From a virus (taxonomy: Duplodnaviria > Caudoviricetes), in IMG/VR virus record IMGVR_UViG_3300015360_000023, positions 128,001 through 192,000 of that record: a DNA stretch of 64,000 nt. One strand, given 5' to 3'. Of the stretch, positions 2,100 to 43,393 are shown piece after piece. The notes under the pieces were generated by a model. The model worked only from the letters and a program-made list of their open reading frames with translations, had not been told where the DNA came from and made no database searches. The first letter of the stretch is position 1. Each line of letters opens with the position of its first letter. A program made the position numbers and the translations under genes.

Positions 2100-4559
2100 A
2101 TGGCATCTATTTTAACACCTGGATATTTACGATGGGATGGGACGAAATACGTCCTTGACGGCTATGTAGAAATTGTTGGCCCAGAAGGCGATGCGGGTCC
2201 TACAGGCCCAACAGGGCTTCAAGGCGTTCCCGGAAGCGGCACTGGAGCCTCAGCTACTGGAGATATCTCTGGAATCTATCCGGGTGCGATGTCTGTTGTT
2301 GGTCTAACTGGTGTTTCTGGTGTTGTTTCTTTCGGAACTGGCGTTACTAATCCAACTATTACTCAAACAACTACGGCCGGAGTTTCTGGTCAACCTATGA
2401 CCCTTAAAGGTCAAAATGCTGTAACTACTGGTGGAGATGTTTTTATTCAAAGCGGCACTGGCACTACTGCCGGCGTTGTTAGATTTTTGATTGGTAATAC
2501 TTTAGCTGGTTATTTTGATAGCAATAAAGTATTTAGAGCTGGACTTAGTGCAGATACTAATATTTCTGTTTTAGGCGGCACGCTAAATGAGCCAGGTAAT
2601 GGTTTATATTCTTATAATGCTTCAGGATTCAATACTGTTATTAGCGCCTCTGGCGCTGTCGCTGCCGAAGCCCAAGTTTTAGTCCTAAATAGTTCTGCCG
2701 GCGCTTCTCTAACAACAGGTCTTAGATTAATTGGTGCGGGCGCTACTAACGGTAATACTGATTGGGTTAGTAATGGAGTAATTGAACAAGTTGGTGGTGC
2801 AACTTCTGCACTTGTTCTTTCTAGTTTATTAGGAAATGGAACTAGTCGTTCAACATCTGCTAAATTTTATCGTTCTGGAGCTGTAGGTATTGGTAGTTCT
2901 GCGACTAACAATACATCTGCCTTAGCTCAGGCCGGATTAACGGGCCCAGTTATCAATCTTGCGGCTGCTACAGGTACATTTACCAGCGCAGCCAATCAAG
3001 CTCTTAACTTCAATATCGCGGGCGCTCACCATATTCAAGGTCATACCGATGTTAGATTTGATATAGGCGCCGCCTTAGCCGGATACTTTGATGTTAATAG
3101 GGCCTTTAGAACTGGCGTAAGTTCCGCCACAAGTACAACTATTTTGAACGTAAGCGTTCCAACTGCAAGCGATACAGCTTATTCATATAATGCTTCCGGC
3201 GACAGTCAATGGAGAATGCTTTCAGGTTCCACCTCTGGAGTTGGTTCTGTTGAAGCCTGGAATTCTAGTGCAGGCGGCGGCACAAGCGTAGGTATGACTT
3301 TCAAAGCTGCTGGCGCTTCTCACAGCGTTGCTGATTGGCAGAGCAACGGAATTATTGAGCAGATTGGCTCAGCTACTTCCTCGTTGGTATTTTCTAAACA
3401 AGATGGTGCTGGCCTTAATCGTGCAACAACTGGAAGAATATTTGCATCAGGCGCATGGGGCATTGGAAGCACGGCCACTAACAACACCTCAACTACGGCT
3501 CAGGCCGGATTAACAGGACCAGTTCTTAATATTGGTGCCGCAACAGGTTCATTTACCACCGCAGCTAACCAAGCTCTTAATTTCAATATTGCTGGTTCTC
3601 ACCATATTCAAGGTCATACCGATGTTAGATTCGACGTTGGTTCTGCTTTAGCAGGATATTTTGATTCAAATAGAACTCTTAGAATTGGGCCAGATGCTTC
3701 CATAGCAGCTAGCGTTTATGGTGCAACTGCACCTACCGCTAATAATGATACCATTTATTCTTATAGCGCTAGTACCTCTAATCCGAACTCATTAAGAATT
3801 ATTTCCAATGCTACTACTAGCAGAGCCATTATTGAAGCAATTAATACTTCTGCTGGCGCTTCTTCAACTATTGCAATTAGAATTCAAGCTGGAGGTTCTT
3901 CCGATGGTATTACCTCATATGCTGGCAATGGAGCCATCGAGCAAGTTGGCTCTGCCATTTCATCTCTTGTATTTGGTAGGGCGGCAGGAGATTTAAGTAG
4001 CAGATCAATTACTGGAAGAATTTATCAATCGGGAGCCTGGGGTATTGGTGATGCTGCTAATAATAATACTTCTGCTCTCGCTCAAGCAGGACTTACTGGC
4101 ACATTATTGAATCTATCGCAGACTACTGGCGGCGCCATCACAACAGCGACCAATCAAGCTACCATGTTTAACGTAGCTGGCCAGCTTACATTACAAGGTA
4201 ATACCGGGGTAACATTATTAAGTGGAACAACCAATATAGCATCTACTACAACAACAAAACTTGTTACTACTGGTAGAAGATTAAAAGTAACTACTACAAC
4301 TATTGCATATCAAGTTCTTGTTACAGATCATATTGTTTCCGTAGGTACAACTGCTGGAGCGATTAACATAACCCTTCCATTGTCGCCCACAACCGGAGAC
4401 ACTTATACCGTTAAGGATGCAAACGGTTCAGCTACCGCTAATAACATTACGATATTAGGTAATGGTAACAATATTGATGCAACCACAAACTCTGTAATTA
4501 GCACAAACTACGGTACAGTTACTGTAGTTTATAATGGTTCTAAGTGGATTACAGTTTAA
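2100..4559 (+). CDS. Tail fibre / virion fibre-like protein
   Basis: G/T/A/S-rich; short collagen-like GxT stretch; three internal repeats (GAxGIG..NNTS..AQAGLTG); C-terminal LPxSPTTGDTYTVKD..IDxxxxxxIxTNYGxVTVVYNGxKW domain shared with the 30389 and 30890 ORFs. Confidence 0.7.
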   Translation: MASILTPGYLRWDGTKYVLDGYVEIVGPEGDAGPTGPTGLQGVPGSGTGASATGDISGIYPGAMSVVGLTGVSGVVSFGTGVTNPTITQTTTAGVSGQPMTLKGQNAVTTGGDVFIQSGTGTTAGVVRFLIGNTLAGYFDSNKVFRAGLSADTNISVLGGTLNEPGNGLYSYNASGFNTVISASGAVAAEAQVLVLNSSAGASLTTGLRLIGAGATNGNTDWVSNGVIEQVGGATSALVLSSLLGNGTSRSTSAKFYRSGAVGIGSSATNNTSALAQAGLTGPVINLAAATGTFTSAANQALNFNIAGAHHIQGHTDVRFDIGAALAGYFDVNRAFRTGVSSATSTTILNVSVPTASDTAYSYNASGDSQWRMLSGSTSGVGSVEAWNSSAGGGTSVGMTFKAAGASHSVADWQSNGIIEQIGSATSSLVFSKQDGAGLNRATTGRIFASGAWGIGSTATNNTSTTAQAGLTGPVLNIGAATGSFTTAANQALNFNIAGSHHIQGHTDVRFDVGSALAGYFDSNRTLRIGPDASIAASVYGATAPTANNDTIYSYSASTSNPNSLRIISNATTSRAIIEAINTSAGASSTIAIRIQAGGSSDGITSYAGNGAIEQVGSAISSLVFGRAAGDLSSRSITGRIYQSGAWGIGDAANNNTSALAQAGLTGTLLNLSQTTGGAITTATNQATMFNVAGQLTLQGNTGVTLLSGTTNIASTTTTKLVTTGRRLKVTTTTIAYQVLVTDHIVSVGTTAGAINITLPLSPTTGDTYTVKDANGSATANNITILGNGNNIDATTNSVISTNYGTVTVVYNGSKWITV

Positions 4560-4640
4560 CACATACTACTTTTGAGATATAAGCACAATTAGGATGGAAT
4601 CATAAGTCATTTAAAATAGTTAGCCCACTGGGGAGGTCCG

Positions 4641-5294
4641 ATGTCATTTCAAGATTTAGTAACAGCAGCAAAAAAGTACTTCCCGGACTTACAAATTAAA
4701 TACAAAGATCAATCTTGGTTAATGAAATTAATCGGTTTTGTACTATTCTTTAATAAATCTTTTATGACCAGTTTTACCACAACTATAGGGTCAACTGTTT
4801 ATTTTCCAACTGAACCAGTAACCAAAGCTAGACCAGTTTCAGCTTCGGTAGTTTTATTACACGAACTAATTCATGTGTATGATGCTAAGAAGATTAGCAA
4901 GCCTCTCTTTGGGTTTTTATACCTAACTCCTCAGGTCTTCGTGCTTCTCTGCCTTCCTTTATTCTTGGTGAGCTGGAAGATTGCTTTACCGTTAATGCTT
5001 CTATTTGCTTCTCCAATTCCATCATATTTTAGAATGTATTTTGAAAAGAGAGCTTATTTAGTTTCATTATACGCTGTTAATGCTTTAGCTAATAGATTGA
5101 ATTTTAAGCCATTATTAGCTACTCAAGAAGAAGGTTTTATCAAACACTTTCAAGATTCTTCTTATTACTTTATGTGGCCATTTGGCGGTATAAGAAAAGA
5201 TTTTGATGATGGAGTTGCTAAAGTAAAAGAGGGGAAACGACCATTTGAAGATCCTGTCTTTGATATTATTGATGATTTGATCATTACAGTATAA
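4641..5294 (+). CDS. Membrane-anchored zincin-like (HExxH) protein
   Basis: LLHELIHVYD, a hydrophobic segment at about aa 90-122, and downstream FEKRAY glutamate. Confidence 0.55.
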   Translation: MSFQDLVTAAKKYFPDLQIKYKDQSWLMKLIGFVLFFNKSFMTSFTTTIGSTVYFPTEPVTKARPVSASVVLLHELIHVYDAKKISKPLFGFLYLTPQVFVLLCLPLFLVSWKIALPLMLLFASPIPSYFRMYFEKRAYLVSLYAVNALANRLNFKPLLATQEEGFIKHFQDSSYYFMWPFGGIRKDFDDGVAKVKEGKRPFEDPVFDIIDDLIITV

Positions 5295-5350
5295 ATTATT
5301 GAGGTTACGCGATATAATACGGAACAGACTCTTTGTTTCAAGGATATTGC

Positions 5351-7578: not shown

Positions 7579-8562
7579 ATGCTTAAAATTTTGTATGCGG
7601 CTTCTGAGAATGAGAATGCCAAAATTCAATTGACCAGATTTCTTCAAGCGATGGAAGGGAAGCCCTTTATCGTTAAGGTAGCCGCCTACAAAAAATCTAG
7701 CCCGGCAATTAATATTGATTGGACCCTTGATTGTCTCAAGAATATTTTTAAGCCAGAGTATGTGACATTAGATAATGACAATTTTGTAACCTATTATAAT
7801 CAGGTTAAGTATTATAATCCAGATTTGATTATTAGTGATTGTGAGTATTATACATCTCATATTGCAAGCGTTTTAGGAACCACCCTTTGGCAGTGTAGTT
7901 CTTCTATTATCAATTTTGCTCTTACTAATGACTACAAGTATAACTTAGGTATCTTTAAAAGATATGCGTATCTTTTTAACAAAAATCAAGTCCATATCCA
8001 GAGACTCACTAATATCCTGGACAATTCAAATTGCAATTTTCTATATTCTCATTTCGGAGATTGTTCATTGCCTCCTTCGATAAAAGAAGGGTTTGAATGG
8101 ATTCGCCCTTACCATCGAGTGGGTAAAGATTCGGTCTTGTGTCGCCACAATGTAATGGCTGGGACGCTTGGGAATAACAAAAAAATTCTAAGCCTATTAA
8201 AACAATATCCAGATTCAGTCTGTTTCACGGAATTCATGGGCGAGACCTATGAAAATCCTCGAATGAAGGATATAAGAGCGCAGGAAGAGTTCTCTTGTAA
8301 CCTCAGAAATTCTAATCTATTTGTGTGTGAAGGTCAGGCCAGTTTTCTAGCAGACGCTTTCTACAATAATAAGTACTCCGCAGTCTTTACCAATCTAGAA
8401 GATACCGAGTGTATTATCAATAGCATCATCTCTGAGAGATTAAAATTAAGTACTTCTATCTATCAAGCTACTGAAGATTTGTTCCCATTAATGGGTAAAA
8501 ACATTTTTTCTCATTTGAATGAGAAGGTTAAGTATTTGCATGAAAGAATTGAGGAATTGTGA
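7579..8562 (+). CDS. Glycosyltransferase-like protein (GT-B, MJ1255-like), possibly degenerate
   Basis: MLKILYAA N-terminus, NPDLIISDCE, LFVCEGQASFLADA. Confidence 0.5.
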   Translation: MLKILYAASENENAKIQLTRFLQAMEGKPFIVKVAAYKKSSPAINIDWTLDCLKNIFKPEYVTLDNDNFVTYYNQVKYYNPDLIISDCEYYTSHIASVLGTTLWQCSSSIINFALTNDYKYNLGIFKRYAYLFNKNQVHIQRLTNILDNSNCNFLYSHFGDCSLPPSIKEGFEWIRPYHRVGKDSVLCRHNVMAGTLGNNKKILSLLKQYPDSVCFTEFMGETYENPRMKDIRAQEEFSCNLRNSNLFVCEGQASFLADAFYNNKYSAVFTNLEDTECIINSIISERLKLSTSIYQATEDLFPLMGKNIFSHLNEKVKYLHERIEEL

Positions 8563-11690: not shown

Positions 11691-13955
11691 TTATGGGGTT
11701 AATCCACTAGGTCCATTCCATTGTAAATATATTCCATTTTGTAAATGAAGCCAACGAGCACATCCGGTTGCTGTGCCACCACTTGTGTATGTTCCATTAC
11801 CTACAGAGTTATTTAATGTAAATTGGGTACTATTTAATACAGTAACTATCCAAGTACCATTAGCAGCGGTATTGCCTAAAACTCCAGATATGGTTACAGT
11901 TTGACCAGTTGTTAGAGCATTAGCTGCCGCAGTAATTTGGATAGGAGAAGCATTGGTGGCGGCAGAGATAGCGCGAGAGGTAACTTCATCTGATGTCAAA
12001 CTAAAATCACCAAAATTAGTTCTACCATTTCTTAATGCTGGAGCTGTTCCCATAAATCCAGGGTTGTAACTAAAAGGAGAGATAATTGCTGTAGTTAAAG
12101 TAACATCAGCAGTTGTTGCCCTCCACACTTCTATTGGTAAAATTTCAGTAGTGCTAGTAAATGGAGAGTCACCAGCATTAGCAGATAACATAGGATTGGT
12201 TGCTGAGGTGCCATCTAGATTCGCCCAACTTGTTAGTGCACAAAATTCAGGAGTATTAGTGCCTATAGTAACGCCAACATTAGTGGCCGCGCCCATTCTT
12301 AATCTAATAGTGCCGAAATCTGTTGTAGGCGCTCCGCCATAACAGAATATTCTGCTTGGATTATCTGGTAAAGGAGCCGGCTCATTATCAGATATCCCGA
12401 AAACCAACATCCCATTATTGCCACCTGTTTCTCTCATAAAAGCAGCAACATATTGGCCGTACCCATCTCCCACCATTGACATGCGAGAAACAAGAGTAAC
12501 ATGTCCGCCGCCTGGCACTGTGTTAGCAAGTGATGTATTTGAGGCAGAATTAATATCCATGAATTCTACTACATGGGTACTGGTTGCGCCAGCCGGAAAA
12601 TCTCCCGCCGAATTTCCGCCATAACCAACAGCAATAGATACGCAAGGTAAATTGGCGCCCATTGGCTCGGCACATATTCTTACTTGCCATGCAGAGCTAT
12701 GAGGGCTTTGTAAAATGATTCTGCTATTAGCTGTGTCCGGACCGCCAGTATATCCAAAAAGAGATAGTGTGCCACCTGAACCAAATGCACCACCAGCAAC
12801 AGAACCATTTAAAGAAAAGCGAGTACTATCGGTTGCCTGCGTAATAGTCCAAGTTCCGTTGGCATTTACATTACCAGTTCCACTGACAACAACCTTTTGT
12901 CCAGTTATCCATGTATGAGGGAAGTTACTGTCCCCCTGAATTACGATCGGAGTTGTGTTAGTCGATCCGCCGACCCCCCAGTTACCGCCATAAAATTTGG
13001 ATAAATAACCAGCAGCAATTACTTCTGTTTCATATAGCCACCAATCAATAGAATTAGTAGCTTCAACAGGGGGAGTTTCGGTTGATCTATAATCAATAAT
13101 GTATCTATTAAGATTAGCTACCTCACCACCAGTTGCCATAGTCCCGGTACCACCTGAACATCCTGTAAAAGTAGTTCCAGTTGTTCCCGTATAAGTAACT
13201 GTAGAAGTGTTAGTAGCTGTAGTAACAAAAATAGTCCCGCTGGCGGGGAATCCAGCCGTAGAGGCTACGTTGATAGTAGCTTGTGGTAGGGTGGCGCCAT
13301 TTGAAGCCGCCGCAATTGTAGTTGTATTGCCCGTATTACGAGCAGAAATCTTAAAGAGTCCGGTATTTTTAGTTGGGAAAGAATTACTTTTCAAAACCAA
13401 TATTTTACCAACATCGCCAACGACCACTTTTCTTTGAGTAATAGGGATAGAGACATCAAAAAATGATCCCGCTCCAAAATTAAGGCCAGCTCCATAACCA
13501 TCGGTTACCATACCTGAAGCATACAGAAATCCGGTAGTCATTGTTGCGGTGCTAGCCGTATAAGTGCCATTACCAAAAGTACCATATAGTGTTGCTTGAG
13601 TTGAATTTAAAACAGTTACTTTCCAAGTTCCATTGACAGCGCTATTACCAGTTCCGCCCGTAATGTTAACTACGTAACCATCTGATAATCCATGAGCAGA
13701 AGCAGTAGTAATTGTAATTGGCGTAGTATTGGTGGCAGCGGTAACAACAAGAGATTTAATGTTATTGTTATCCATGTTCCAGGAAGTTTGACCAACAACA
13801 GTGTATCCTAAAACTTTTTGTAGAAAAAGAGTTAGTTGATACATAAATCCAACATAAAACCTACCAGTATTATTTGTGCTAAAAGAGCCTCCAAAAGGTT
13901 GACTAACGTAACCTGAAGTAGTTGGATTATAATCTCTTGAGATAAAAATTGTCAT
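11691..13955 (-). CDS. Virion fibre/adhesin protein, paralog A1
   Basis: N-terminal SRDY, RIILQSPH..WQVR core, C-terminal HLQNGIYLQWNGP; T/G-rich repeats. Confidence 0.7.
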   Translation of the reverse strand: MTIFISRDYNPTTSGYVSQPFGGSFSTNNTGRFYVGFMYQLTLFLQKVLGYTVVGQTSWNMDNNNIKSLVVTAATNTTPITITTASAHGLSDGYVVNITGGTGNSAVNGTWKVTVLNSTQATLYGTFGNGTYTASTATMTTGFLYASGMVTDGYGAGLNFGAGSFFDVSIPITQRKVVVGDVGKILVLKSNSFPTKNTGLFKISARNTGNTTTIAAASNGATLPQATINVASTAGFPASGTIFVTTATNTSTVTYTGTTGTTFTGCSGGTGTMATGGEVANLNRYIIDYRSTETPPVEATNSIDWWLYETEVIAAGYLSKFYGGNWGVGGSTNTTPIVIQGDSNFPHTWITGQKVVVSGTGNVNANGTWTITQATDSTRFSLNGSVAGGAFGSGGTLSLFGYTGGPDTANSRIILQSPHSSAWQVRICAEPMGANLPCVSIAVGYGGNSAGDFPAGATSTHVVEFMDINSASNTSLANTVPGGGHVTLVSRMSMVGDGYGQYVAAFMRETGGNNGMLVFGISDNEPAPLPDNPSRIFCYGGAPTTDFGTIRLRMGAATNVGVTIGTNTPEFCALTSWANLDGTSATNPMLSANAGDSPFTSTTEILPIEVWRATTADVTLTTAIISPFSYNPGFMGTAPALRNGRTNFGDFSLTSDEVTSRAISAATNASPIQITAAANALTTGQTVTISGVLGNTAANGTWIVTVLNSTQFTLNNSVGNGTYTSGGTATGCARWLHLQNGIYLQWNGPSGLTP

Positions 13956-15244: not shown

Positions 15245-15820
15245 TTATTCTATCCAACGTGATACTATAACTATATTAACTAAATTATTTCCACTTGGCG
15301 GTGTTTTGAAGACATCTCGCTCTACATTAGCTGGATGACGACCAGGTACTGGATCAAATAATTCTGGACGGCCAGTAATATTTTCCGAAATAACCCAAGC
15401 TTCCCATGAAGATGTTAAAGGGTTCCATCCCTTTAGTTTATAATAAATAGTTTGATCTTTAGGGTGATCAATAACAGAATTAATATCTATATCAAATAAA
15501 GATTCTTCAATTGGTTGTTCGTACTTTCCCCAATTGGTATTGTATCCAGTATATAATTCATTCTTAAATGAATCTACCATGTTATCAGAAGTGACGCCGC
15601 CCCAATTTGAGTTGTATCCAGCATATGGTTGATTAAAAAATGGTGAGTTTACGTTTTGATTATCGTAAGATCCCCAATCTAGCATATAGCCTTGGAACAC
15701 TCCATCTGTAAACTGTATAGGAGTAGTGCCCGCATAGCCATCCCAATGATCACCAGTACTAGGTAAGCTAAATCCATCGGAAAATGATAATAGTATGTTT
15801 GAAGTTTGTGCTATTGCCAT
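15245..15820 (-). CDS. Virion-associated protein with the YYKLKGWNP module
   Basis: Tyr/Asn-rich; C-terminal IYYKLKGWNPLTSSWEAWV. Confidence 0.65.
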   Translation of the reverse strand: MAIAQTSNILLSFSDGFSLPSTGDHWDGYAGTTPIQFTDGVFQGYMLDWGSYDNQNVNSPFFNQPYAGYNSNWGGVTSDNMVDSFKNELYTGYNTNWGKYEQPIEESLFDIDINSVIDHPKDQTIYYKLKGWNPLTSSWEAWVISENITGRPELFDPVPGRHPANVERDVFKTPPSGNNLVNIVIVSRWIE

Positions 15821-27653: not shown

Positions 27654-30389
27654 ATGACAAATTACCCTAACAGCCAAGACAATATCATCACGCTTCCTGG
27701 CGTTTCAGGAGTCACCGACGAGGACATTGCTATCAATGCCTTAAGAGAGGCCGCATTTGCAATTGAAAAAGAATTGGGAATTGTGCCTAGCGGTGTTTAT
27801 TCTGATGTTAGAGCTAGATTTGATATTCTAGAAGCTAGAATCAATAGTCCAGCATCTGGTATTATCTTAAGCGATGGCTACACTAATAGCCCATTTTTTA
27901 TTGTAAATACTCCATCAGCCGTAACGCTAAGTATCAGTGACGGATACGGAGTTCCTACTGAAAATAGAATCGATGGTTCTCTTTTCATGCGAGCAGACGG
28001 CTACGCTAATCATGAACTTTACATTCGTAGAAGCGGAGCTTGGTATCCAATGCAATCTGATTTATGGGTTGCTGGCGGAGACCTATCTGGAACTTACACG
28101 AATCAAACAGTTATTGGCATTAGGGGAAAATCTCTTAACGTATCTTTAGCTACTACGGGCGCGACCCAAGACGGATATCATCTTACTTGGAACAATGTCA
28201 TTACTTCTTGGGAAGCACAAACTGGTTTTATTGCTAATGGAGATCTTGCAATTCTTAGCGGTCCATTTGGTAGGACTGGTCAAACAGTTGTAAGACTTCA
28301 AGGCAGAACTTTAGCTAGTACAGCTCCTAGCGGAGCTACTTCTTCAGATGGTGACGGACTTGCTTGGGATCCTTCCACTAGCCAGTGGCAACCAAGGCCC
28401 CGTGCTATTATCTTTGACGGATATGTTGCTAGAAGCAATATAAGATCAAATAAAATTTTACAATCACCAATTCTAAATACTAAAACTGGTATCGTTAATT
28501 TTGGTAGTCGTTCTACTGGTGGCGCAGTGGGAGCCCAAGAAGATTACTCGGCTATTCTTTCTGGTGACAGAGGCGCAGCAACTAATACATTCAGCCTAAT
28601 AGTTGGTGGTGATAGCCATATCGTTAGCGGCCAATACGGCACTGCAATTAATGGATTAAGTAATATTATTAGCGGTCAATATGGATCTGTAATTAATGGA
28701 TTAAGTAATACTGCCTCTTCTCAATATTCTTTCGTAGGAAATGGAACGCTTAATACAGCTAGCCAGACTCATGCTTTTGTATTAGATGGCTATTCTAACA
28801 CTGCATCTGGCGTTAATTCATTTGTCTTGGGCGGGGGCAGCAACGCTCCAGCAGCCTCCTTCTCTGGAGTGCTAAACGGTATCTCCAATACCATTACTTC
28901 CACCTCAACTCATGCGGGTATCGGCTTTGGCTCCAACAACGCGATTGCTGGCGCCACGTCAACTTATACGATTATTCTAGGCGGTAGCGGCAACACGGCC
29001 AATGGACAGAACATCTTCTTAGGAAATCCAACTGGAGCCAGCGTATCCTCTGCTTATTCAGCAGTTGTCTCCGGTCAAACAAATATAATTAACGCGGCCT
29101 CAACTTTCTCATTCGTTGGCGCGGGCGTTAATAATACGCTAACCGGATTGTATGCAACAATCTTAAACGGTACAACTTCAACAGTTAACGGTTTACACGG
29201 TCTAATTCTAAATGGTAATACTAATTCTGTAACAGGAAGTTATTCTACCATCGTAAATGGGCTTAACAACATCATTAGCGGTGCAGTATCTCATGCCGGC
29301 ATCTTTGACGGATATAGCAATACAGTATCTATTTCAGGCGGACTTGTTCTAGGCGGATTTAGTAATACAGTTTCTGGATTGTATTCAACTGTTGTAAATG
29401 GTAATGGAAATAATTTTGCAGCAAGTAACTCTACAGTTCTAAATGGAAGCACTAATACGGCTGATGCTGCCAGCATGCAATGCACAGTTCTTAATGGAAC
29501 TGGTAATGCTATTATTGGTACAATTAACGGATTGATTTCAGGCAACACAAACACAGTAACTAATGCAAGTAATTCTTATGTCTTTGGTGGTTCTAACATT
29601 GTTCTAGCTGCATCTTCCAAAATTATTGGAAACAGTAATACTGTTGCGCCGGGTGGCACTTTCAATAGAATTTTTGGTAGCACAAATGCACTTAGCGCAG
29701 GGGCCACCACGAATACTATATTTGGTAATTCTAATCAATTAATAAATACGGCTAATAACTCTGTTGTGGCTGGGCATTCTAACATTGTTGATGCTGGCGG
29801 AAATAACGTTGTCTTAGGCTCAACAAATATTACAAATGGTAATTTCTCTACTGTCATGGGACAATATGGTAAGTCCAGAATGTTTGGACAATATGTTCAT
29901 GCCAACTCTAGATTCACTGGTGGAACCATTGGTCAAGCTCAGTTCTCTAGATTAATTCTAACTGGAACGGCAAACTCAGGCGCCGCTATCCAATGTTTAT
30001 TGCAGGACGCTGCACCAACGCCCCCAACGTTCGTAGATGGCTATTCTTATGATATGCAGATTAGAGTACTAGTAGTTAATACTTCTCCAATCTCACCTAA
30101 CCCTGTTGTTCCTGCTCGTTTTGTTTTTGATGTATTAGCTCATCAAGAAGGTGGCGTTCTAATCTTAGATAATATTAATCAAAGTGTAATTACTCTAAAT
30201 ACATCTGATGATCCTACGGGCGTTACCCGTACAGTAGGTTGGTCTGTCAGCGTAACAGCGTCTACTAATCAATTATTAGTTACCGTTGATCCTGAGATAT
30301 CATCCGCTAATTATGTTCAACCAACAAATACCGCATCAAATAGAAGAGCTATTGCAACTATCGATATGCGCGAGGTAACGAGACTATAA
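27654..30389 (+). CDS. Fibre/adhesin protein with 15-aa beta-solenoid repeats
   Basis: N-terminal YPNSQD..LP..AIEKELG; tandem 15-aa repeats QYGSVINGLSNTASS at about 28540-29870. Confidence 0.75.
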   Translation: MTNYPNSQDNIITLPGVSGVTDEDIAINALREAAFAIEKELGIVPSGVYSDVRARFDILEARINSPASGIILSDGYTNSPFFIVNTPSAVTLSISDGYGVPTENRIDGSLFMRADGYANHELYIRRSGAWYPMQSDLWVAGGDLSGTYTNQTVIGIRGKSLNVSLATTGATQDGYHLTWNNVITSWEAQTGFIANGDLAILSGPFGRTGQTVVRLQGRTLASTAPSGATSSDGDGLAWDPSTSQWQPRPRAIIFDGYVARSNIRSNKILQSPILNTKTGIVNFGSRSTGGAVGAQEDYSAILSGDRGAATNTFSLIVGGDSHIVSGQYGTAINGLSNIISGQYGSVINGLSNTASSQYSFVGNGTLNTASQTHAFVLDGYSNTASGVNSFVLGGGSNAPAASFSGVLNGISNTITSTSTHAGIGFGSNNAIAGATSTYTIILGGSGNTANGQNIFLGNPTGASVSSAYSAVVSGQTNIINAASTFSFVGAGVNNTLTGLYATILNGTTSTVNGLHGLILNGNTNSVTGSYSTIVNGLNNIISGAVSHAGIFDGYSNTVSISGGLVLGGFSNTVSGLYSTVVNGNGNNFAASNSTVLNGSTNTADAASMQCTVLNGTGNAIIGTINGLISGNTNTVTNASNSYVFGGSNIVLAASSKIIGNSNTVAPGGTFNRIFGSTNALSAGATTNTIFGNSNQLINTANNSVVAGHSNIVDAGGNNVVLGSTNITNGNFSTVMGQYGKSRMFGQYVHANSRFTGGTIGQAQFSRLILTGTANSGAAIQCLLQDAAPTPPTFVDGYSYDMQIRVLVVNTSPISPNPVVPARFVFDVLAHQEGGVLILDNINQSVITLNTSDDPTGVTRTVGWSVSVTASTNQLLVTVDPEISSANYVQPTNTASNRRAIATIDMREVTRL

Positions 30390-30820
30390 TGCCAAGACAT
30401 ACTCCTAGAACTAAAACATTTGTTATGCCAGAGATAACTGACAGGTTTCCTGCTGGAAATCCTCCTGACGGCTATGTAGTAACTTTCAGTGGGACTGATG
30501 GTTATTATTATCCTAGACCTACTTCTAAACTTTTACTTTTAGGAGTTCCATCTGCGGGCGGGCCTCATACGATTACGACAGAAGATCTTGTTTTAGTTCC
30601 AAGTCATAGCGGAACTTACATTGTTAACTTGCCAGTAGCCCCTCCAATTGGATTTCATGTATTTGTTAAAGATTTCGCAGGTGTAGCTCTTGCTAACCCA
30701 ATCAATGTTGTGGCCGCCGCCAATATAGATGGCACTTCGCCTTACATAATAAATGTAAATTATGGTGGTGCCCATTTTGTTTTCAATGGTGCGACCTGGT
30801 CAATTATCAGTAAATTCTAA
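30389..30820 (+). CDS. Small fibre-associated protein (stand-alone LPxxP..G..V.VKD..ID..Y domain)
   Basis: Homologous to the C-termini of the 2100 and 30890 ORFs; TAATG overlap with the upstream gene. Confidence 0.7.
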   Translation: MPRHTPRTKTFVMPEITDRFPAGNPPDGYVVTFSGTDGYYYPRPTSKLLLLGVPSAGGPHTITTEDLVLVPSHSGTYIVNLPVAPPIGFHVFVKDFAGVALANPINVVAAANIDGTSPYIINVNYGGAHFVFNGATWSIISKF

Positions 30821-30889: not shown

Positions 30890-33800
30890 ATGGCAATTCA
30901 GTACTACATGCGAGCATACAATACAAGCCTTTCCAATTATGTGGAGTGGATTGTAAATGACACGCCCGACACAGTCGGTACCTTTTCTGGTTATCCAACT
31001 AACCAGTTAACTAATATTATTGTCAATAGAATAGTTAGTTCAAAGGTTGATAATTTTCTAAAACCCAATCAATCTCTTGGTGGAAATGATGGTTATTATT
31101 TCCATATTAATAGTTATGATTGGTTAAAGGCTACAGCCCCAATTGGCGTTCCTACTACCTTAGCTGGTGTCGCCATTGAAAGAGGAATTACCTCTATAGC
31201 TACTGTTTCAGCAGCCACTAATGCAACGCCTATCGTATTAACTACGTCTGCCCATGGTATTACTGTAGGTGCTCAGGTTATGATTACGGTGATAGGCGTT
31301 TTAGGTAACGTCGCTGCCAATGGCACTTTTCCGGCCGTAGCTACTACGGGAACTAGTTTTTCATTAATTGGTTCTGAAGGTAGTGGAGCTTATACTTCCG
31401 GTGGTACTATTTATACGCCAACCGATTTCTCAACTCTTACTTGGGATGAAACTAATAACAGTTGGAGAATGGCACTTAATACAAGTGGCAATGGACTTAC
31501 CTTGGGCGCAAGTCAAAATCTTAGAGTATTAAATTCCTTCGTTGATGGCTATGCCTCCTTAGGAACTACCGCTCATGGAACGACCACCGTAGCGGCAACG
31601 GGCACAATAAGATTTCCAAACAATCAATTTATGATTGGTAGAAATGTTGGTTTAACTGCCGATATTTCTATGATTGGTATTGATACTTTGAATAGAATTA
31701 AAATCGGAGCTGGTGTTTCTGATTTAGTTTATTTACCAGGTAATCTTGATGTTGATGGATACATTGTTCATGACGGAACGGGAACTAACGTTCCGCTTAC
31801 CGGATTTATCCGTGAGCAAAATGGTACTAACATCATTGCTGTTAGAAATCAAGCAGGCACTCTTGATATCGTAGTTCTATCTACTACCGCAGCTAATCGT
31901 ATCGTCCTTGGAGACGCTGTTAATGCTGGAACAGTTTATAATACTGCTACTGGCGGACTTCATGCTTTCCAGATTAACTCAGTTTCAACAATTGAGTTAG
32001 GAGACGTATATGCAAGATTTACTGCCGGCGTAGTTGCTCCAACCATTATGCAAGTAACTGCTGGTGCTGGTCAAACTGGTCAGACACTAACGCTACAAGC
32101 TCAGAACGGTGGAACAGGCAGCACCACAGGCGGTATCGCCCAAGTAATGTCAGGTACTGGTAGCTCATTTTCAGGAACTGTTGACCTAAGTACTGGGGGT
32201 GTTGTTAAAGTAAGAGTACACCCAACAACTGCTCCGGCAGCCGCCAACAACAGTACTATCGAATTGTTTAATAACAATTTAAGGTTTGATGATCTTCAGA
32301 CTTTACCATTTATTTTTCAAGAAACTACGGCTGGAGCTACTGCAACTCACTTAACAGTTCAGGCACAAAACGCAGCAACTACTGGCGGTAATTTACTACT
32401 ATCTTCTGGAACTGGCGCAGGTACTGCTGGTAACGTTATTATTAAAACTGGTAATACCAATCAGATTATCGTCACACCAACATTAACTACCATTTTAGGT
32501 AATTTATTAGTTAACGGAACTACAACCAGCGTAGCTAGCACTGTAGTTGAAATTGCAGATAGAGTTATTAACCTAAACAGCTCTGCTAACCAATTTCCTG
32601 GAACAACTGTTCCTCTACCAACTCAACTTACTGGTTTTGCAGTTGACAGAGGCTCTACAGATAATACTACTAAAAGAGCGTATCACGGTCTATTCTGGTC
32701 TGAAACTGATAGCTATTGGAGATTCGCTGTTAACACTGACGGTTATACTGCTCAGAACGTATTAACAACTACTCTTCCAGTTATTGGCTCTCATTTCTTA
32801 GTTCAACCAAGTGCTTCCGTTCCAGTAACTGCCGCCTTAATCCCAACTGTTGGCGGATTTAGAACTCTAAATAACACGGTATCATTAGCCTCACGTAATG
32901 CGGCCGGTACACAAGATTTAATTCAAGCAAGTACAGACTCAACCAATCATTTGATATGGGGATCCCCAACTCAAAATGCTGGTCATATCTTTAATACGAC
33001 CACGTCTACAATATATGATTTCCAGGTTAACTCTGTTTCAACTTATCAGATCCAACCAATATCAAACGGAACTACTACACTTCAAGCAACTTCAGGTGTA
33101 ACAGCGCTAGTTTATAATCAAGCAACTACTGGCTCCGCAACCGGCGCCCCAACTACCTTGCAAGCTCAAAATGCTGCAACTACAGGTGGCGCTCTAATCC
33201 TTACCTCAGGTACGGGAGCAACAACTGCCGGTAATCTTCAACTTCAAACTGGTGCAGTAGACCGCGTTGTTGTTCATCCGGACTTTACTGAATTTAGAGA
33301 TACTGCTGAGGCTCTAAGAATTACTCCAGTATCTGCTGGTACTACTTTAATCACTTACGCTTCTACGGTAACCACTGCTCAAATTGATCAGACGGCTACT
33401 GGTAGCGCAACTGGCGCATTGATGTTTATCAAGGCACAGAACGCAGCCACTACGGGTGGCGAACTAAGATTAAGTTCTGGTACAGGCGGTACTACAGCAG
33501 GAAACGCTAACATCCAAACGGGTGGCGTCACTAAAGTTTCTGTCAATCCAACTTTTACGACCTTTAATGATACTGCCGAAGCAGTACGCATCACCCCAGT
33601 CTCTGCTGGCACTACTCAAGTTACATTCGCAACAGGCATCACGTCAGTTTCCTTTAATCAAACGGCAACTGGTGGAGCAACCGGAGCACCTTGGACTATT
33701 CAGGCTCAAACAGGTGCATCAGGTACTGGTGGAGCTATCAGCTTAATTGCAGGCAATGCCACTACTACAGGTGGAAATGCAATAGTTAGTTCAGGTACAG

Positions 33801-35002
33801 GCGCTACCGCAGGTAACGTTAACCTACAGACTGGGGCAGTTACCAGAGTATCTATCAACCCCACCTTTACTACCTTTAATGATACTGTAGAAGCATTAAG
33901 AGTTACCCCAGTATCTTCTGGTACAACTCAGATTACTTATGCTTCTACAGTAACGGCCGCTCAGATTAACCAAACGGCAACCGCTGGTGCAACTGGCGCC
34001 CCGATGACTCATCAGGCTCAGAACGCAGTCACCACAGGTGGTGCGTTGAACCTTAGCTCAGGTACGGGAGTTACAGCCGGCAATACCAACCTTCAAACTG
34101 GAGCTGTTACTAGGGTATCTGTTAATCCGACCTTCACAACCTTTAATGATACAATAGAGGCTTTGAGAGTTACTCCAGTGTCTTCTGGTAGTACGCTTAT
34201 TACATTTGCTTCTACGGTTACCGCCGCCACAGTTAACCAAACTACTACTGGTGGGGCAACTGGAGCTAACCTTACGATTCAGGCACAGAATGCTGTAACC
34301 ACTGGTGGAAATGCAGTCATTACTTCAGGTACTGGCGCAACGGCTGGTAATGTTCAATTGCAGACCGGAGCTGTAGATAGAATAATTGTCCATCCAACCT
34401 ACACTGAGTTCAGAGATATGGCTGAAGCCGTACGTATTGTACCAGTCTCTTCCGGTATAAGCTATATACAATTCGCTAGCACAGTAACTACATCTGGTAT
34501 CGCTCAAGCAGATACAGTAGTAAATGCAGCAACCGGCGCTCCGTTAGCCGTTATAGCGCAACATGCAACTGGAACTACTACTGTTGGCGGTGCCTTACTT
34601 CTAAGTTCTGGAACTGGTACAACTACTAACGGTGCAGTTAACTTACAAGTTGGTACAGTTACTACTGCCTCTCTAGTAACTAACAAGTTTGTCTTTAATA
34701 AGGGTCGTCGTAGAAACGTTACCCAAATCAGCAGCGCAGGTGGCACATACGCTGTTCTTGCTACGAATGATTACATCGCCATTACAACGGTAGCAGCTTC
34801 GTTTACCATTAATCTTCCAACAACGCCAACTCTTGGTGATACTTATGAGATCAAAGATACTACTGGAAATGCCTCTCCAACCTTTGTTGTTACTATAGGT
34901 GGAAATGGTACCAATATCGATGGTGCAGCTTCAATCCCAATTACCACTGGTTATGCCGCAGTAACTGTAACGTACACTGGTACTCAATGGAGTCTAAGCT
35001 AA
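30890..35002 (+). CDS. Long tail fibre-like protein with ~90-aa repeats
   Basis: Repeats QAQNAxTTGGxxxLxSGTG..TAGN..LQTG..RV..xPTFTxFxDTxEAxRxTPVS; AGGAG RBS; 1370 aa. Confidence 0.75.
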   Translation: MAIQYYMRAYNTSLSNYVEWIVNDTPDTVGTFSGYPTNQLTNIIVNRIVSSKVDNFLKPNQSLGGNDGYYFHINSYDWLKATAPIGVPTTLAGVAIERGITSIATVSAATNATPIVLTTSAHGITVGAQVMITVIGVLGNVAANGTFPAVATTGTSFSLIGSEGSGAYTSGGTIYTPTDFSTLTWDETNNSWRMALNTSGNGLTLGASQNLRVLNSFVDGYASLGTTAHGTTTVAATGTIRFPNNQFMIGRNVGLTADISMIGIDTLNRIKIGAGVSDLVYLPGNLDVDGYIVHDGTGTNVPLTGFIREQNGTNIIAVRNQAGTLDIVVLSTTAANRIVLGDAVNAGTVYNTATGGLHAFQINSVSTIELGDVYARFTAGVVAPTIMQVTAGAGQTGQTLTLQAQNGGTGSTTGGIAQVMSGTGSSFSGTVDLSTGGVVKVRVHPTTAPAAANNSTIELFNNNLRFDDLQTLPFIFQETTAGATATHLTVQAQNAATTGGNLLLSSGTGAGTAGNVIIKTGNTNQIIVTPTLTTILGNLLVNGTTTSVASTVVEIADRVINLNSSANQFPGTTVPLPTQLTGFAVDRGSTDNTTKRAYHGLFWSETDSYWRFAVNTDGYTAQNVLTTTLPVIGSHFLVQPSASVPVTAALIPTVGGFRTLNNTVSLASRNAAGTQDLIQASTDSTNHLIWGSPTQNAGHIFNTTTSTIYDFQVNSVSTYQIQPISNGTTTLQATSGVTALVYNQATTGSATGAPTTLQAQNAATTGGALILTSGTGATTAGNLQLQTGAVDRVVVHPDFTEFRDTAEALRITPVSAGTTLITYASTVTTAQIDQTATGSATGALMFIKAQNAATTGGELRLSSGTGGTTAGNANIQTGGVTKVSVNPTFTTFNDTAEAVRITPVSAGTTQVTFATGITSVSFNQTATGGATGAPWTIQAQTGASGTGGAISLIAGNATTTGGNAIVSSGTGATAGNVNLQTGAVTRVSINPTFTTFNDTVEALRVTPVSSGTTQITYASTVTAAQINQTATAGATGAPMTHQAQNAVTTGGALNLSSGTGVTAGNTNLQTGAVTRVSVNPTFTTFNDTIEALRVTPVSSGSTLITFASTVTAATVNQTTTGGATGANLTIQAQNAVTTGGNAVITSGTGATAGNVQLQTGAVDRIIVHPTYTEFRDMAEAVRIVPVSSGISYIQFASTVTTSGIAQADTVVNAATGAPLAVIAQHATGTTTVGGALLLSSGTGTTTNGAVNLQVGTVTTASLVTNKFVFNKGRRRNVTQISSAGGTYAVLATNDYIAITTVAASFTINLPTTPTLGDTYEIKDTTGNASPTFVVTIGGNGTNIDGAASIPITTGYAAVTVTYTGTQWSLS

Positions 35003-35334
35003 TGAGCTATAAATATCTAGACGGATACGCTAATCCCGGAGTCAGAATTGTTAGGGATTTTCCTAGCAACGCAAACTACACTGCTGTAGTAAATGATTAC
35101 CGCGCAGCAATCATGGAATTTACCGCTACCGGAACTCCAATTACTGCTGACAGAGATGTAATCTTACCAAACATTGCAGGTCTTCAATGGATTGTATATA
35201 ATAATACAACCGCTTCTTTTAACTTGGTATTCAAAGTTTCTGGACAAACGGGGGTTACAGTCGCGTACAATAAACGTTGTATAGTCTACTGTGATGGTAC
35301 TGATATAGTACGAGCTACTCCAGACAATCCATAA
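35002..35334 (+). CDS. Small fibre-associated protein
   Basis: TAATG overlap; IxFTxTxxxxADRDVILP...WIVYNNT...V.V...KRCIVYCDGTD. Confidence 0.7.
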   Translation: MSYKYLDGYANPGVRIVRDFPSNANYTAVVNDYRAAIMEFTATGTPITADRDVILPNIAGLQWIVYNNTTASFNLVFKVSGQTGVTVAYNKRCIVYCDGTDIVRATPDNP

Positions 35335-40539: not shown

Positions 40540-40540
40540 C

Positions 40541-41029
40541 TTAATCCCTTTGAATCAAATTGGGCATAGTAATAAACATTGGAATCATTCCCTTTGCCCG
40601 GTAGTCTTTCTTAATCTGATCGCTTAGGTACTGGTATCCGCTGATAGTACCCCTGCATTTATAACTGCTACATCCACAGCTCATCTTCCATTCTTCCAAT
40701 GTATCGGTAGATGAGGTGGAATAATCGAAAAATAATTCCGTTCCCTCCGTAATCAAATACAAAGAATATAAGATGGCCCTGTTACCCACAATGTGGACAA
40801 AACAGTTTGGATCACAACTATGATTGATGTAGTCGTCAACGGCTCCAGATGGCCCCATAATCCTATTGGCCCCCACTTGTAAGAACAAAGCTGGATCAAT
40901 AGCTGATTTATTTTTAGGGACGATTGTACCAGTAAACTCAATGATGGGAGAGTTTGCAGGTATTTTTACCTTAGTAAAAACTCCTAATCCAGTTTTGGAT
41001 TTCTTAATCTCTAAGTACTCGTTATACAT
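40541..41029 (-). CDS. SET-domain lysine methyltransferase with post-SET
   Basis: GLGVF, YINHSCDPN, ELFFDY, CGCSSYKCRG. Confidence 0.9.
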   Translation of the reverse strand: MYNEYLEIKKSKTGLGVFTKVKIPANSPIIEFTGTIVPKNKSAIDPALFLQVGANRIMGPSGAVDDYINHSCDPNCFVHIVGNRAILYSLYLITEGTELFFDYSTSSTDTLEEWKMSCGCSSYKCRGTISGYQYLSDQIKKDYRAKGMIPMFITMPNLIQRD

Positions 41030-42189: not shown

Positions 42190-42191
42190 TT

Positions 42192-42755
42192 TTACTTTCC
42201 GGTAGAACCAAATCCACCTGCTCCTCTTATAGAGGCTCGTGCTTTGCACAGCTTATTATATTCTTCATTGGTAATTCCTTCGACTACCATTTCATCACGG
42301 CGTCTTGGAATAATCTGTGCAACGGCATCACCGAACTCAATTTTCAATTCAGTGCATCCGCAGTAATCTCCCCACTTTTCTGGCTCATACCATGAACTAT
42401 TATCATCCCATTCTTCTCTGTAGGAGACAGGTGGTAGATATTGGCAAGCAAATACTAATTCACCTTCATATGTTTCATCTACAGTTCCATAGAGAGCATG
42501 AAGGTTTTTCTTAGCGAAAGTACTAGAGCGTGGTTTAATATCATACCACCATCCATCTGGACAATAACCTCGAATGCCTAATGGCATCTTGATAAGATCA
42601 AAAGGTTTAACTATTAGCGTTTTTCGATCTGACATAGCTGCTCGCACGTCCCAGCCAGAAGCCTTGGGCTCTCCACGAGTTGGGAGGAATCTTTTATCAT
42701 CCTGAAGGTCATCACGAAGGGCAAATTTGAAATTGGGGGTATTATATCCGTCCAT
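42192..42755 (-). CDS. dut: Trimeric dUTPase with an insertion
   Basis: Motifs GWDV, PRSS, GTVDETYEGE, AQI, RGAGGFGSTG. Confidence 0.92.
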   Translation of the reverse strand: MDGYNTPNFKFALRDDLQDDKRFLPTRGEPKASGWDVRAAMSDRKTLIVKPFDLIKMPLGIRGYCPDGWWYDIKPRSSTFAKKNLHALYGTVDETYEGELVFACQYLPPVSYREEWDDNSSWYEPEKWGDYCGCTELKIEFGDAVAQIIPRRRDEMVVEGITNEEYNKLCKARASIRGAGGFGSTGK

Positions 42756-42814
42756 TATGCACTCACTTTAATTATGCTCTTTAAGCAGTCAAGGGTATAA
42801 AATATCATATATTT

Positions 42815-43393
42815 ATGCCGTCATTTCCGCCAGCTATTATTTTCATCAATTCCGATCCAATCACTCATTATCCAGATGGATACATCTATACTGATGGTTA
42901 TTATGTGGATGGGTATCAAGTTAATCCTGATGGCTATATTAACGACCTTACTAGGAATCTATTGGAGCAACAGCTCTGGATAGATGAAACGATGACTTTT
43001 AGAGAGTTTTCTCTTAGAGTTTCTGTTGATCCTAATTATCAAGCCGTAGTTCATTTACAAGGTAAGAGAATTTTAGTTATTTTGACAGATTTTTATGACG
43101 TGACCCATCGAAACTTAGCGGACTTAGTGCTCTTCTATACCCATGGTCTGGTGTACGTAGAAAAAAATAATTATGGCCCGCCCGGATTATCCCTTCCTCT
43201 AGAAAGATTAAATATCTATGTACTATTACGAGACGTTGGTTCAAGATATGTAACGATTCTCCCTCCCACATCGACCAGACCTCCTCGTTCATTGGGTGGA
43301 ATTGTAGTGATTCAAGGCGCGGATTCTAGTGGTGTTCATGACCCTAATCCAGATAATATTTATAATAATCCAGATTTTATAAATAGGAAGTAA
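42815..43393 (+). CDS. Hypothetical protein with four clustered DGY motifs
   Basis: YPDGYIYTDGYYVDGYQVNPDGYIN. Confidence 0.7.
   Translation: MPSFPPAIIFINSDPITHYPDGYIYTDGYYVDGYQVNPDGYINDLTRNLLEQQLWIDETMTFREFSLRVSVDPNYQAVVHLQGKRILVILTDFYDVTHRNLADLVLFYTHGLVYVEKNNYGPPGLSLPLERLNIYVLLRDVGSRYVTILPPTSTRPPRSLGGIVVIQGADSSGVHDPNPDNIYNNPDFINRK

Follow-up and report, generated by a model that had tools for sequence, protein, structure and literature searches.

A DGY tripeptide enriched in the Lys/Glu-poor outer-virion proteins of phage G relatives: a candidate short linear mark

The tripeptide Asp-Gly-Tyr (DGY) occurs 33 times in the proteins encoded by the window analyzed here, a 64,000-nt stretch of phage DNA: 28 times in fiber-type ORFs, four times in ORF 42815 and once at the start of a dUTPase. 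The signal resides at the protein level, depends on these three residues in this exact order, and is confined to a Lys/Glu-poor class of outer-virion proteins. The enrichment is a trait of one clade of giant phages, the uncultured relatives of Bacillus phage G. On the basis of these data, we tentatively favor the view that DGY serves as a short linear mark, recognized within the infected cell and most likely a putative site of tyrosine modification. The record studied (202.6 kb) represents about half of a genome of some 450 kb, and its source habitat is a microbial mat.

An initial annotation of this DNA had counted DGY by hand, and a recount agrees with it ORF by ORF, including the lack of the motif in array ORFs 45158-60283 and in the other enzymes of the window. 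The 17 Lys/Glu-poor, fiber-type ORFs located between positions 2100 and 35334 total 8,703 amino acids and hold the 28 sites, compared to a mean of 1.30 (SD 1.13, maximum 7) in 5,000 shuffles within each protein; the expectation under independent residues for all ORFs of the fiber stretch (10,831 amino acids) is 1.78, close to the value of about two estimated originally. When all tripeptides of this stretch are ranked, DGY comes out on top by far (Poisson 6e-24, with the runner-up at ~1e-6). Across the 202.6 kb, there are 81 occurrences versus 10.3 expected under independence and 16.2 under a first-order Markov model; the Lys/Glu-poor class accounts for 73 of them (3.9 expected), and the coupling between Asp and Tyr around Gly has an odds ratio of 21.7 in this class versus 1.4 in the remaining proteins. 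None of the related tripeptides tested (NGY, EGY, DGF, DGW, DAY, DSY, YGD) is enriched. The varied codons from which a protein-level signal had been deduced amount to 15 combinations in the genome, where the DNA pattern GAYGGNTAY is found 81 times in the coding frame, seven times in the other sense frames and five times in antisense. Merging window sites no more than 12 amino acids apart leaves 26 loci, and clustering of the 81 genomic sites by the similarity of their DGY-masked flanks yields 73 clusters with unrelated contexts. The enrichment therefore outlasts correction for composition and repeat copies; its disappearance under such a correction had been named at the outset as one of the outcomes that would refute the proposal.

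The motif is carried by proteins of diverse architecture. The tailspike or beta-roll fiber protein at 27654..30389 (plus strand, 911 aa) has eight sites, at residues 74, 96, 115, 173, 255, 378, 552 and 795. Four each are present in a Lys/Glu-poor virion-type protein (26321..27565, minus strand, 414 aa; residues 141, 227, 232 and 337), whose orthologue in the related genome G001 keeps three, and in a Thr-rich fiber-type protein (30890..35002, plus strand, 1370 aa; 67, 219, 289 and 617), where all four are kept. A fiber-type protein with an E1_FCCH-like beta-barrel module (11691..13955, minus strand, 754 aa) has three (92, 152 and 497), one of them kept in G001, and a Lys/Glu-poor protein of 530 aa (18368..19960, minus strand) has two (158 and 220), both kept. 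The 143-aa protein at 30389..30820 (plus strand; residues 27 and 37) displays a paired N-terminal motif, DGY-x7-DGY-x3-RP, that is common to three other fiber proteins; it belongs to the only sizeable cluster of similar flanks. Single sites occur in a collagen-like (G-x-y) fiber protein (2100..4559, plus strand, 819 aa; residue 20, DHD in G001), a 191-aa protein (15245..15820, minus strand; residue 27), a 541-aa Lys/Glu-poor protein with a weak E1_FCCH-like module (21445..23070, minus strand; residue 331), a 243-aa Lys/Glu-poor protein (25580..26311, minus strand; residue 7, DAN in G001) and a Lys/Glu-poor ORF of 115 aa (34987..35334, plus strand; residue 12). The fiber-type proteins are rich in glycine, and a few of the DGY sites lie in internal repeats.

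The 27654..30389 fiber matches the LbR_Ice_bind beta-roll in Pfam, and its AF2 model (pLDDT 78) has phage tailspikes and the UspA1 head as best Foldseek matches. At most of the eight modelled sites, D-G falls in a loop or strand end and the Tyr begins or directly precedes a strand, with one site of the eight scored as strand over its whole length. Each such fiber carries 8–16 DGY, of which many occupy beta-roll corners distributed over the length of the shaft, where the tripeptide stands in place of NGT, NGS or NGN. A different setting is found in the Lys/Glu-poor protein of 192 aa at 42815..43393 (plus strand), whose flexible loop connecting strand 1 to helix 1 holds four tandem sites (21, 27, 32 and 39); in its AF2 model, pLDDT is <50 for residues 17-20 and 22-37 and ~90 for the core, and a fold search with this model gave no significant match. 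The motif is lacking in 81 of 120 homologues; the other 39 have one to four in the same loop, in several differently built cassettes. In the models, DGY thus sits on turns leading into beta-strands or in flexible loops, and substitution patterns together with secondary structure point to an exposed Tyr.

Between genomes G000 and G001, 85% of DGY sites are retained, compared to 48% for DGx, 30% for xGY and 33% for other tripeptides, and sites that are lost become unrelated, mostly polar triplets. The 95 homologues of the 27654 fiber contain 975 DGY versus 15.5 expected, other xGY tripeptides being rare (88). DGY triplets occupy 63 alignment columns in this family, 23 of them singletons, and the gains occur within conserved flanks, by point change and not by cassette copying. 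Two subfamilies have similar densities (11.2 and 9.4 per protein), yet share only three of 14 majority columns. DGY is thus kept far above background, arises de novo as well, and turns over while its density is maintained. The initial proposal of a short linear motif is borne out in that DGY behaves as a free-standing element under selection on virion proteins.

Relatives with a capsid protein at least 89% identical show a 9–18-fold excess in their outer proteins. The 80 loci around near-identical capsid genes hold 279 DGY versus 17.4 expected, and the observed/expected ratio (O/E) in the outer class is 18.4, 13.6 and 9.4 for G001, G003 and G004, respectively; overall, DGY is about 15–20 times as frequent as chance in fiber-type proteins of the phage and its relatives. 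Phage G itself shows enrichment only in a probable fiber block (14 versus 2.2). T4, Rctr197k, Tunturi_5 and Lu11 show none, with an overall O/E of 0.9–2.1 (T4, at 2.1, illustrating a mild baseline excess in such controls) and an outer-class O/E of 0.5–2.5. Conversely, the Lys/Glu-rich proteins of G000, G003 and G004 together contain 15 DGY versus 30.6 expected, and this O/E of 0.49 is the lowest among the tabulated xGY, DGx and DxY neighbors, whereas the pooled controls reach 1.45 in the same class. This suggests that the clade's Lys/Glu-rich proteins avoid DGY, the signal being a modest one (P 0.0015 against independence, in related genomes).

According to our preferred explanation, selection would have installed, and would maintain, a portable three-residue motif on the outward-facing proteins of the clade. 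Because the motif is wanted on one protein class and avoided on the rest, it would be read in trans within the infected cell. The Tyr hydroxyl would serve as the acceptor of a phage-directed modification, with the Asp at -2 and the Gly turn as the recognition element; the modification would most plausibly be glycosylation, carried out by a glycosyltransferase that the phage itself encodes, and would cover the outer virion with a dense coat. DGY would then be an undescribed mark, perhaps for a sugar-adding enzyme. The literature searched contained no mention of a DGY motif, and we know of no cytoplasmic Tyr-glycosylation sequon.

As candidate writers, the initial annotation had named a glycosyltransferase-like and a kinase-like protein of the window. 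The former is found at 7579..8562 (plus strand), a GT-B protein (Glyco_trans_1_3/TIGR00661-like) in an enzyme island between fiber genes, adjoining an exonuclease and a flavoenzyme; its homologues carry PF13528 and its language-model (Atlas) features score 0.98–0.96 to PF13528 clusters, its own Pfam match reaching only E 0.16. The gene is conserved at 52–75% in G001, G003, G004 and G005, whereas phage G and five further phages examined lack the family. Past the tail block, outside the window, are one GT4/GT1, two GT2 and one NDP-sugar 4,6-dehydratase/epimerase, which brings the genome to four glycosyltransferases and one sugar dehydratase. The presence of particular glycosyltransferases does not discriminate, since both G004, devoid of the two GT2 genes, and phage G, devoid of the GT-B gene, are still enriched; the GT-B enzyme could instead glycosylate nucleic acid or small molecules. 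No kinase-like protein was found among the window enzymes, the unnamed ones resolving to an HD/YfbR-like nucleotidase, ThyX, GMP reductase, exonucleases, SET, an FGE-like protein and peptidases.

The general O-glycosylation motif of Bacteroidetes, D-(S/T)-(A/I/L/V/M/T), and the Campylobacter PglB motif, D/E-X-N-X-S/T, resemble DGY in being very short, in pairing Asp with a nearby acceptor and in being scattered over many unrelated surface proteins; the PglB motif also has its acid at -2. Both systems, however, use oligosaccharyltransferases and lipid-linked glycans to modify Ser/Thr or Asn outside the cytoplasm, whereas the candidate acceptor in DGY is Tyr, assembly is cytoplasmic and the glycan putative. 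A second parallel is the cytoplasmic glycosylation of beta-helical adhesins by HMW1C/NGT, on N-X-S/T, and by Aah/TibC, which heptosylate AIDA-I/TibA repeats: these transferases are soluble and, ahead of export or assembly, modify numerous repeat corners along long beta-solenoid surface proteins, although on Asn or Ser. For a discussion of the Bacteroidetes system, see PMC8698959. Mycobacteriophage virions are described as glycosylated by phage-encoded glycosyltransferases (Freeman et al. 2023, as cited in PMC12582341; see also PMC11256854). As in those phages, glycosyltransferase genes lie next to structural genes here, and their products are presumed to act on outer virion proteins. To our knowledge, no sequon has been reported for mycobacteriophage virions; in the present phage, by contrast, the capsid protein has no DGY, neck, sheath-insert, baseplate and fiber proteins carry the motif, and glycosylation is putative. 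Tyr O-glycosylation of S-layer proteins in Paenibacillus alvei and Thermoanaerobacter is a precedent in that glycans are stably attached to Tyr in the surface-array proteins of bacteria, but involves two to four sites per protein and transfer outside the membrane by an O-oligosaccharyltransferase, and the review gives no DGY-like consensus (PMC2943079).

A possible, if rather doubtful, alternative to such a modification is that DGY turns and loops are non-covalent docking ligands, bound by a repeated virion module or an assembly factor. Candidate binders would be the small beta-barrel plug-in modules that the DGY-bearing proteins themselves carry, the outer proteins would latch together, and tagged proteins would be recruited to the particle. 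The placement of the sites favors this, with 21 of 81 in the first 40 residues (8.2 expected) and 24 of 111 neighboring pairs no more than 12 amino acids apart, as do the N-terminal double-DGY hairpin common to four different fiber proteins and the grafting of a tandem cassette onto a loop of the otherwise unrelated ORF 42815 protein; avoidance in non-virion proteins would prevent mis-incorporation. However, the 8–16 sites along a fiber shaft exceed what docking needs, turnover of positions at kept density is unusual for fixed interfaces, and no binding module was identified.

It is unlikely that the motif acts by intrinsic surface chemistry without any reader, exposed Asp and Tyr on one turn face forming generic sticky hot-spots through which the particle would make many weak contacts with metal ions, mineral surfaces or the polysaccharides of host or mat. 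Antibody loops rich in Tyr and Asp provide a parallel; in antigen-combining loops, the prevailing residues are Tyr, Asp, Gly and Ser. The restriction to outward-facing proteins, the density kept while positions move, the polar replacements and the mat habitat are all compatible with this view, which leaves unexplained the avoidance in intracellular proteins and the strict order with a middle Gly, and for which no ligand is known.

Less probable still is a purely structural habit, D-G being a favored hairpin turn and Tyr a good first strand residue, inherited and multiplied in the fiber modules of this lineage. The loop-to-strand location in the models, the replacement of NGT/NGS/NGN corners and the baseline excess in T4 fit this reading, and Asx-turn and type I + G1-bulge beta-hairpin turns, of the form x-D/N-G-x, likewise place D-G in the turn before the first strand residue. 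Those turns, unlike DGY, tolerate Asn in place of Asp and a variety of residues following Gly, and show about a 1–2-fold excess in other phages with no avoidance elsewhere, compared to 18-fold for DGY. The lack of enrichment of turn-compatible NGY, DGF and DGW, the scarcity of other xGY, the unrelated flanks, the gains by point change, the cassettes in a disordered loop, the unenriched Lys/Glu-poor fiber proteins of other phages and the avoidance in non-virion proteins all argue against it.

A cleavage site for a phage or host protease, also raised initially, is very improbable: the motif is short and the genes of the window include those for a trypsin-like peptidase and a metallopeptidase, but the sites lie inside confidently modelled beta-roll coils, up to 16 per fiber, head proteins of the normally processed kind have no DGY, and trypsin-like enzymes cut after Lys or Arg. 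An artefact of composition, repeats or ORF calling, which Gly-rich sequence and a few repeat-borne sites might invite, has a negligible chance and was rejected on the shuffles, the Markov model, the frame specificity, the 73 independent clusters and the reproduction in relatives. The lone DGY of the dUTPase (42192..42755, minus strand; residues 2-4) is probably a chance occurrence and hinges on the start codon chosen.

The 82 plausible ORFs of the window were translated and the tripeptide Asp-Gly-Tyr (DGY) was counted in each. The resulting tallies agree with the initial annotation, which had reported DGY enrichment in virion proteins: there are 28 copies in the fibre-type block, four in ORF 42815 and one at residue 2 of the dUTPase, and none in the roughly 30 ORFs of the array of small paralogues (window 45158-60283) or in the other enzymes. 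The 17 Lys/Glu-poor ORFs at 2100-35334 of the window, comprising 8,703 aa, hold 28 DGY against a mean of 1.30 and a maximum of 7 in 5,000 within-protein residue shuffles, and when all tripeptides of the fibre block are ranked DGY stands alone at a Poisson probability of 6e-24, with the runner-up at ~1e-6. The source contig, which occurs in microbial-mat samples (G000; 202,609 bp, of which the window is bases 128001-192000) encodes 81 DGY in 215 ORFs, where 10.3 are expected for independent residues and 16.2 under a first-order Markov model. The corresponding nucleotide pattern GAYGGNTAY occurs across the contig 81 times in the coding frame, seven times in the other sense frames and five times in antisense, and 15 of the 16 possible codon combinations are in use; the signal is accordingly one of protein sequence. 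The enrichment is confined to this exact tripeptide, as no other DxY, xGY or DGx comes near the level of DGY and the reversed YGD is not enriched. The positions from -10 to +10 around the motif carry less than 0.45 bit of information each, and with DGY masked the flanks of the 81 sites, which form 73 clusters, are no more similar to each other than control windows from the same proteins. The enrichment thus persists after correction for composition and repeat copies by shuffles, the Markov model and flank clustering. It is real, specific to the lineage and bears clear signs of selection.

DGY occurs in 34 proteins and 73 unrelated contexts, and 32 of the 34 belong to an outer-virion class of fibre-type proteins in which Lys and Glu are depleted 3-4-fold and Thr, Gly and Ser are abundant. 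Their place in the virion is inferred from folds, from matches to protein families and from the order of the genes; PHROGs and Pfam searches leave nearly all of the fibre proteins without a name. The class comprises, among others, a collagen-like fibre, beta-roll/tailspike-like fibres, large proteins of the baseplate side and the outer portion of the sheath protein; there is no DGY in the major head protein, the portal or the long Lys-rich tail-interior proteins. Proteins with a Lys+Glu fraction (K+E) below 8% contain 73 DGY against 3.9 expected, the remaining proteins 8 against 6.0, and the coupling of Asp at -1 with Tyr at +1 around a central Gly has an odds ratio of 21.7 in the former and 1.4 in the latter. 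Within the carriers, sites are concentrated in the first 40 residues (21 versus 8.2 expected), and close pairs also occur. The ratio of observed to expected DGY (O/E) climbs as K+E falls, from 3-5 at 8-11% through 13 at 5-8% to 18 below 5%. The Lys/Glu depletion of the outer-virion proteins is itself selective (whole contig; window 2100-35334), with Lys at 0.28x and Glu at 0.33x, and Asp (0.74x) and Arg (0.83x) much less affected. Of the window's DGY, 27 lie in the 24-kb fibre-gene block at window 11691-35334. This block behaves like an accessory module: the complete relative G004 largely lacks it at the syntenic locus (395-397 kb), and another uncultured giant-phage relative, G003, has it.

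The rest of the proteome shows the opposite tendency. Among 1,069 proteins with K+E of at least 11% from G000, G003 and G004, which are related genomes, 15 DGY are found against 30.6 expected (O/E 0.49), the lowest ratio among the tabulated xGY, DGx and DxY neighbours (0.73 to 1.53), and the same class in five control phages has 60 against 41.5 (O/E 1.45). The most Lys/Glu-rich proteins of the capsid loci (K+E at or above 14%) point the same way, with one DGY where 13 would be expected. Because the genomes are related, the evidence for avoidance of DGY in the Lys/Glu-rich proteins of the clade is suggestive; it is nonetheless what one would predict were every accessible DGY acted upon by some factor in the infected cell.

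Relatives were found by a capsid protein search; the 911-aa beta-roll/tailspike-type fibre (ORF 27654, window 27654-30389), used alone as a query of viral contigs, returned two weak loci only, and the fibre gene had no RNA holder listed. IMG/VR contains 320 capsid protein relatives, the best 80 of which are 89-98% identical and lie on contigs of up to 481 kb. Deposited phages, searched at the DNA and protein levels with the head-side region and a 654-aa virion protein, gave no match. As the G000 contig is rated 47% complete and its 204-kb sister contigs ~48%, it is probably about half a genome. The Lys/Glu-poor proteins of the 80 capsid loci contain 279 DGY against 17.4 expected. Three additional genomes were read completely, and their Lys/Glu-poor proteins contain 95 against 5.2 (G001), 70 against 5.2 (G003) and 27 against 2.9 (G004). 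No such signal is seen in the control phages T4 (17 versus 8.2), Rctr197k (5 versus 5.6), Tunturi_5 (17 versus 11.6) and Lu11 (12 versus 10.0), their own Lys/Glu-poor or long proteins included.

Bacillus phage G shares 53% capsid protein identity with G000; it has no genome-wide excess (33 DGY versus 21.6), and its Lys/Glu-poor class is almost absent. However, gp420-gp431 (316783-347675), a set of unannotated giant proteins beside an XkdX gene and a probable fibre block, contain 14 DGY against 2.2 expected (odds ratio 5.8). None of the G000 sites falls in a stretch alignable to phage G, and because gp420-gp431 do not align with G000 proteins the signal was not inherited site by site. A literature search for phage G virion proteomics found nothing useful.

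The evolution of individual sites was followed between G000 and G001, in which the outer proteins are 30-90% identical by local alignment, mostly 55-73%. DGY is kept at 56 of 66 aligned outer-class positions (85%). The corresponding retention is 48% where only Asp-Gly is shared with the motif (DGx), 30% where only Gly-Tyr is (xGY) and 33% for the remaining tripeptides, and the product of the single-residue retention rates is 0.42. Sites that are lost read RIF, DSA, DTT, DHD, NRQ, ESS, DAN or DDA in G001, and not NGY or DGF. The 911-aa fibre belongs to a family of 95 sequences, 36-75% identical, that contains 975 DGY against 15.5 expected, such that one third of all its tyrosines lie within the motif. 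These occupy 63 column triplets, of which 23 are singletons, and for several singletons the flanks are 93-100% identical to those of the nearest motif-free relative, which reads, for example, GQN, DDY or NAD; such sites are accordingly gains by point change. Two subfamilies of the fibre, with 11.2 and 9.4 DGY per protein, have only 3 of 14 majority columns in common, and in one loop the motif is shifted by two residues between them. In these alignments, DGY combines a conserved core with turnover at constant density.

The 911-aa fibre was modelled with AF2 (pLDDT 78), and the model resembles a fibre or tailspike. Most of its eight DGY have Asp-Gly in a loop or at a strand end, with Tyr as the first residue of the following strand or just before it; site 552 is scored as strand throughout, and two sites are beta-roll corners where homologues mostly have NGT, NGS or NGN. 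Replacements in the Tyr columns of the family are polar or Gly in ~58% of cases, mostly N, T, S, D, Q, K and E, a pattern that fits exposed positions. ORF 42815, a 192-aa protein with a cassette of four DGY, offers a different context: 81 of its 120 homologues lack the motif and 39 have one to four copies, in inserts that are differently built but all placed at one loop, which joins the first strand to the first helix. The cassette loop is modelled at pLDDT <50 on a confident core; DGY is accordingly portable, and it works in a flexible loop. No PDB structure matches the core fold at E ≤0.001; the core has a weak likeness to P-loop-type alpha/beta folds (Atlas TM 0.44 or lower), the cassette position, after the first strand, is where the P-loop would sit, and the family ends in a conserved NNPDFINRK tail.

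Taken together, the enrichment in outer proteins, the portability between loops, the density-preserving turnover and the avoidance elsewhere favor the view that DGY is a mark read in trans, by modification or docking, and on balance we regard this as probable. Purely structural and artefactual explanations are poorly supported. A generic beta-turn motif would accord with the modelled sites at loop-strand transitions; NGY, DGF and DGW are at expectation, however, and the enrichment is absent from four phages that are unrelated or only distantly related. A protease site had been proposed along with modification and docking; for a head-maturation site the distribution does not fit, since DGY occurs in fibres and inside repeat cores and is scarce in the most Lys/Glu-rich proteins of the capsid loci. 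Periodic repeat families (YD/Rhs, cell-wall-binding, trimeric-autotransporter head repeats) do not account for the motif, given the low flank information and only two sites in beta-roll repeat copies.

If DGY is a mark read in trans, putative Tyr modification, most plausibly glycosylation, comes first among its possible forms, a choice that we make tentatively. Like a protein-modification sequon of the glycosylation type, DGY is a short fixed motif with a modifiable residue on many unrelated proteins of one compartment, and it is avoided where modification would be unwanted, the latter likeness being suggestive as the genomes are related. Enrichment on one protein class with avoidance on the rest is a proteome-wide footprint of the kind sequons leave. 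In its most specific and more doubtful form, the proposal is that DGY serves as acceptor sequon for a cytoplasmic Tyr-modification system not known before, most likely a putative Tyr O-glycosylation by phage-encoded transferases. Such a system would coat the whole outer surface in a widespread clade of 200-500-kb phages, the proteome of which would have evolved around the modification, with DGY installed on outer proteins and purged from the others. A literature search for the term 'DGY motif' gave no match, and a review of S-layer glycomes gives no Tyr sequon (PMC2943079).

The initial annotation had named a glycosyltransferase-like and a kinase-like protein as candidate writers. The first is upheld by ORF 7579-8562, which is GT-B-like by language-model features (0.98) and has many homologues with PF13528 or TIGR00661, its own Pfam match reaching only E 0.16; the gene lies inside the fibre region and is conserved in four relatives. 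No kinase was found among the window enzymes. Outside the window, a glycan gene cluster (G000 108231-115440) directly follows the tail block, starting 0.8 kb past the last tail gene, with the order GT4/GT1, GT2, Fpg/Nei DNA glycosylase, an uncharacterised gene, GT2 and NDP-sugar 4,6-dehydratase/epimerase, then a TubZ-like tubulin. G000 thus has four glycosyltransferases and one sugar dehydratase. As in mycobacteriophage-type virion glycosylation, glycosyltransferase genes adjoin structural genes (7579-8562 and the post-tail cluster); the presumed targets there are capsid and tail-tube subunits, whereas in G000 the major head protein, the portal and the long Lys-rich tail-interior proteins are without DGY. 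In the genomes compared, those rich and those poor in DGY are not told apart by which glycosyltransferases they carry, and none of these enzymes is tied to DGY: G004 keeps the glycan cluster without both GT2 genes and still has a DGY O/E of 9.4, and phage G, without the GT-B family and with sub-threshold glycosyltransferase matches only, still has the excess in its probable fibre block.

Should DGY prove to be a read mark, hundreds of uncultured giant phages would share a three-residue code that tells which proteins face outward, and a new recognition module or tyrosine-directed chemistry would be indicated. The motif is a simple sequence handle to predict outer virion proteins in these phages, and phage G, with 14 sites in its probable fibre block, is a cultivable proxy for it.

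Several other genes of the window deserve mention. An FGE-sulfatase-like protein of C-type-lectin fold (44256-45161, + strand) lies two genes past ORF 42815; there is no sign that it is the target of a diversity-generating retroelement, as 35-64 kb contains no direct (template/variable) repeats of at least 60 bp. A peptide-chain release factor (48738-49832, + strand; PCRF E 1e-45, RF-1 E 1e-36) adjoins the array of small zinc-ribbon paralogues; no recoding is evident, and the ORFs read well under table 11. The non-structural genes include an M24 methionine-aminopeptidase-like protein (118-918, + strand), a SET-domain protein (40541-41029, - strand) and a pair of a metallopeptidase and a trypsin-like peptidase (60353-61782, - strand). 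The last 4 kb (60001-64000) have a G+C content of 0.47, compared with ~0.40 elsewhere.
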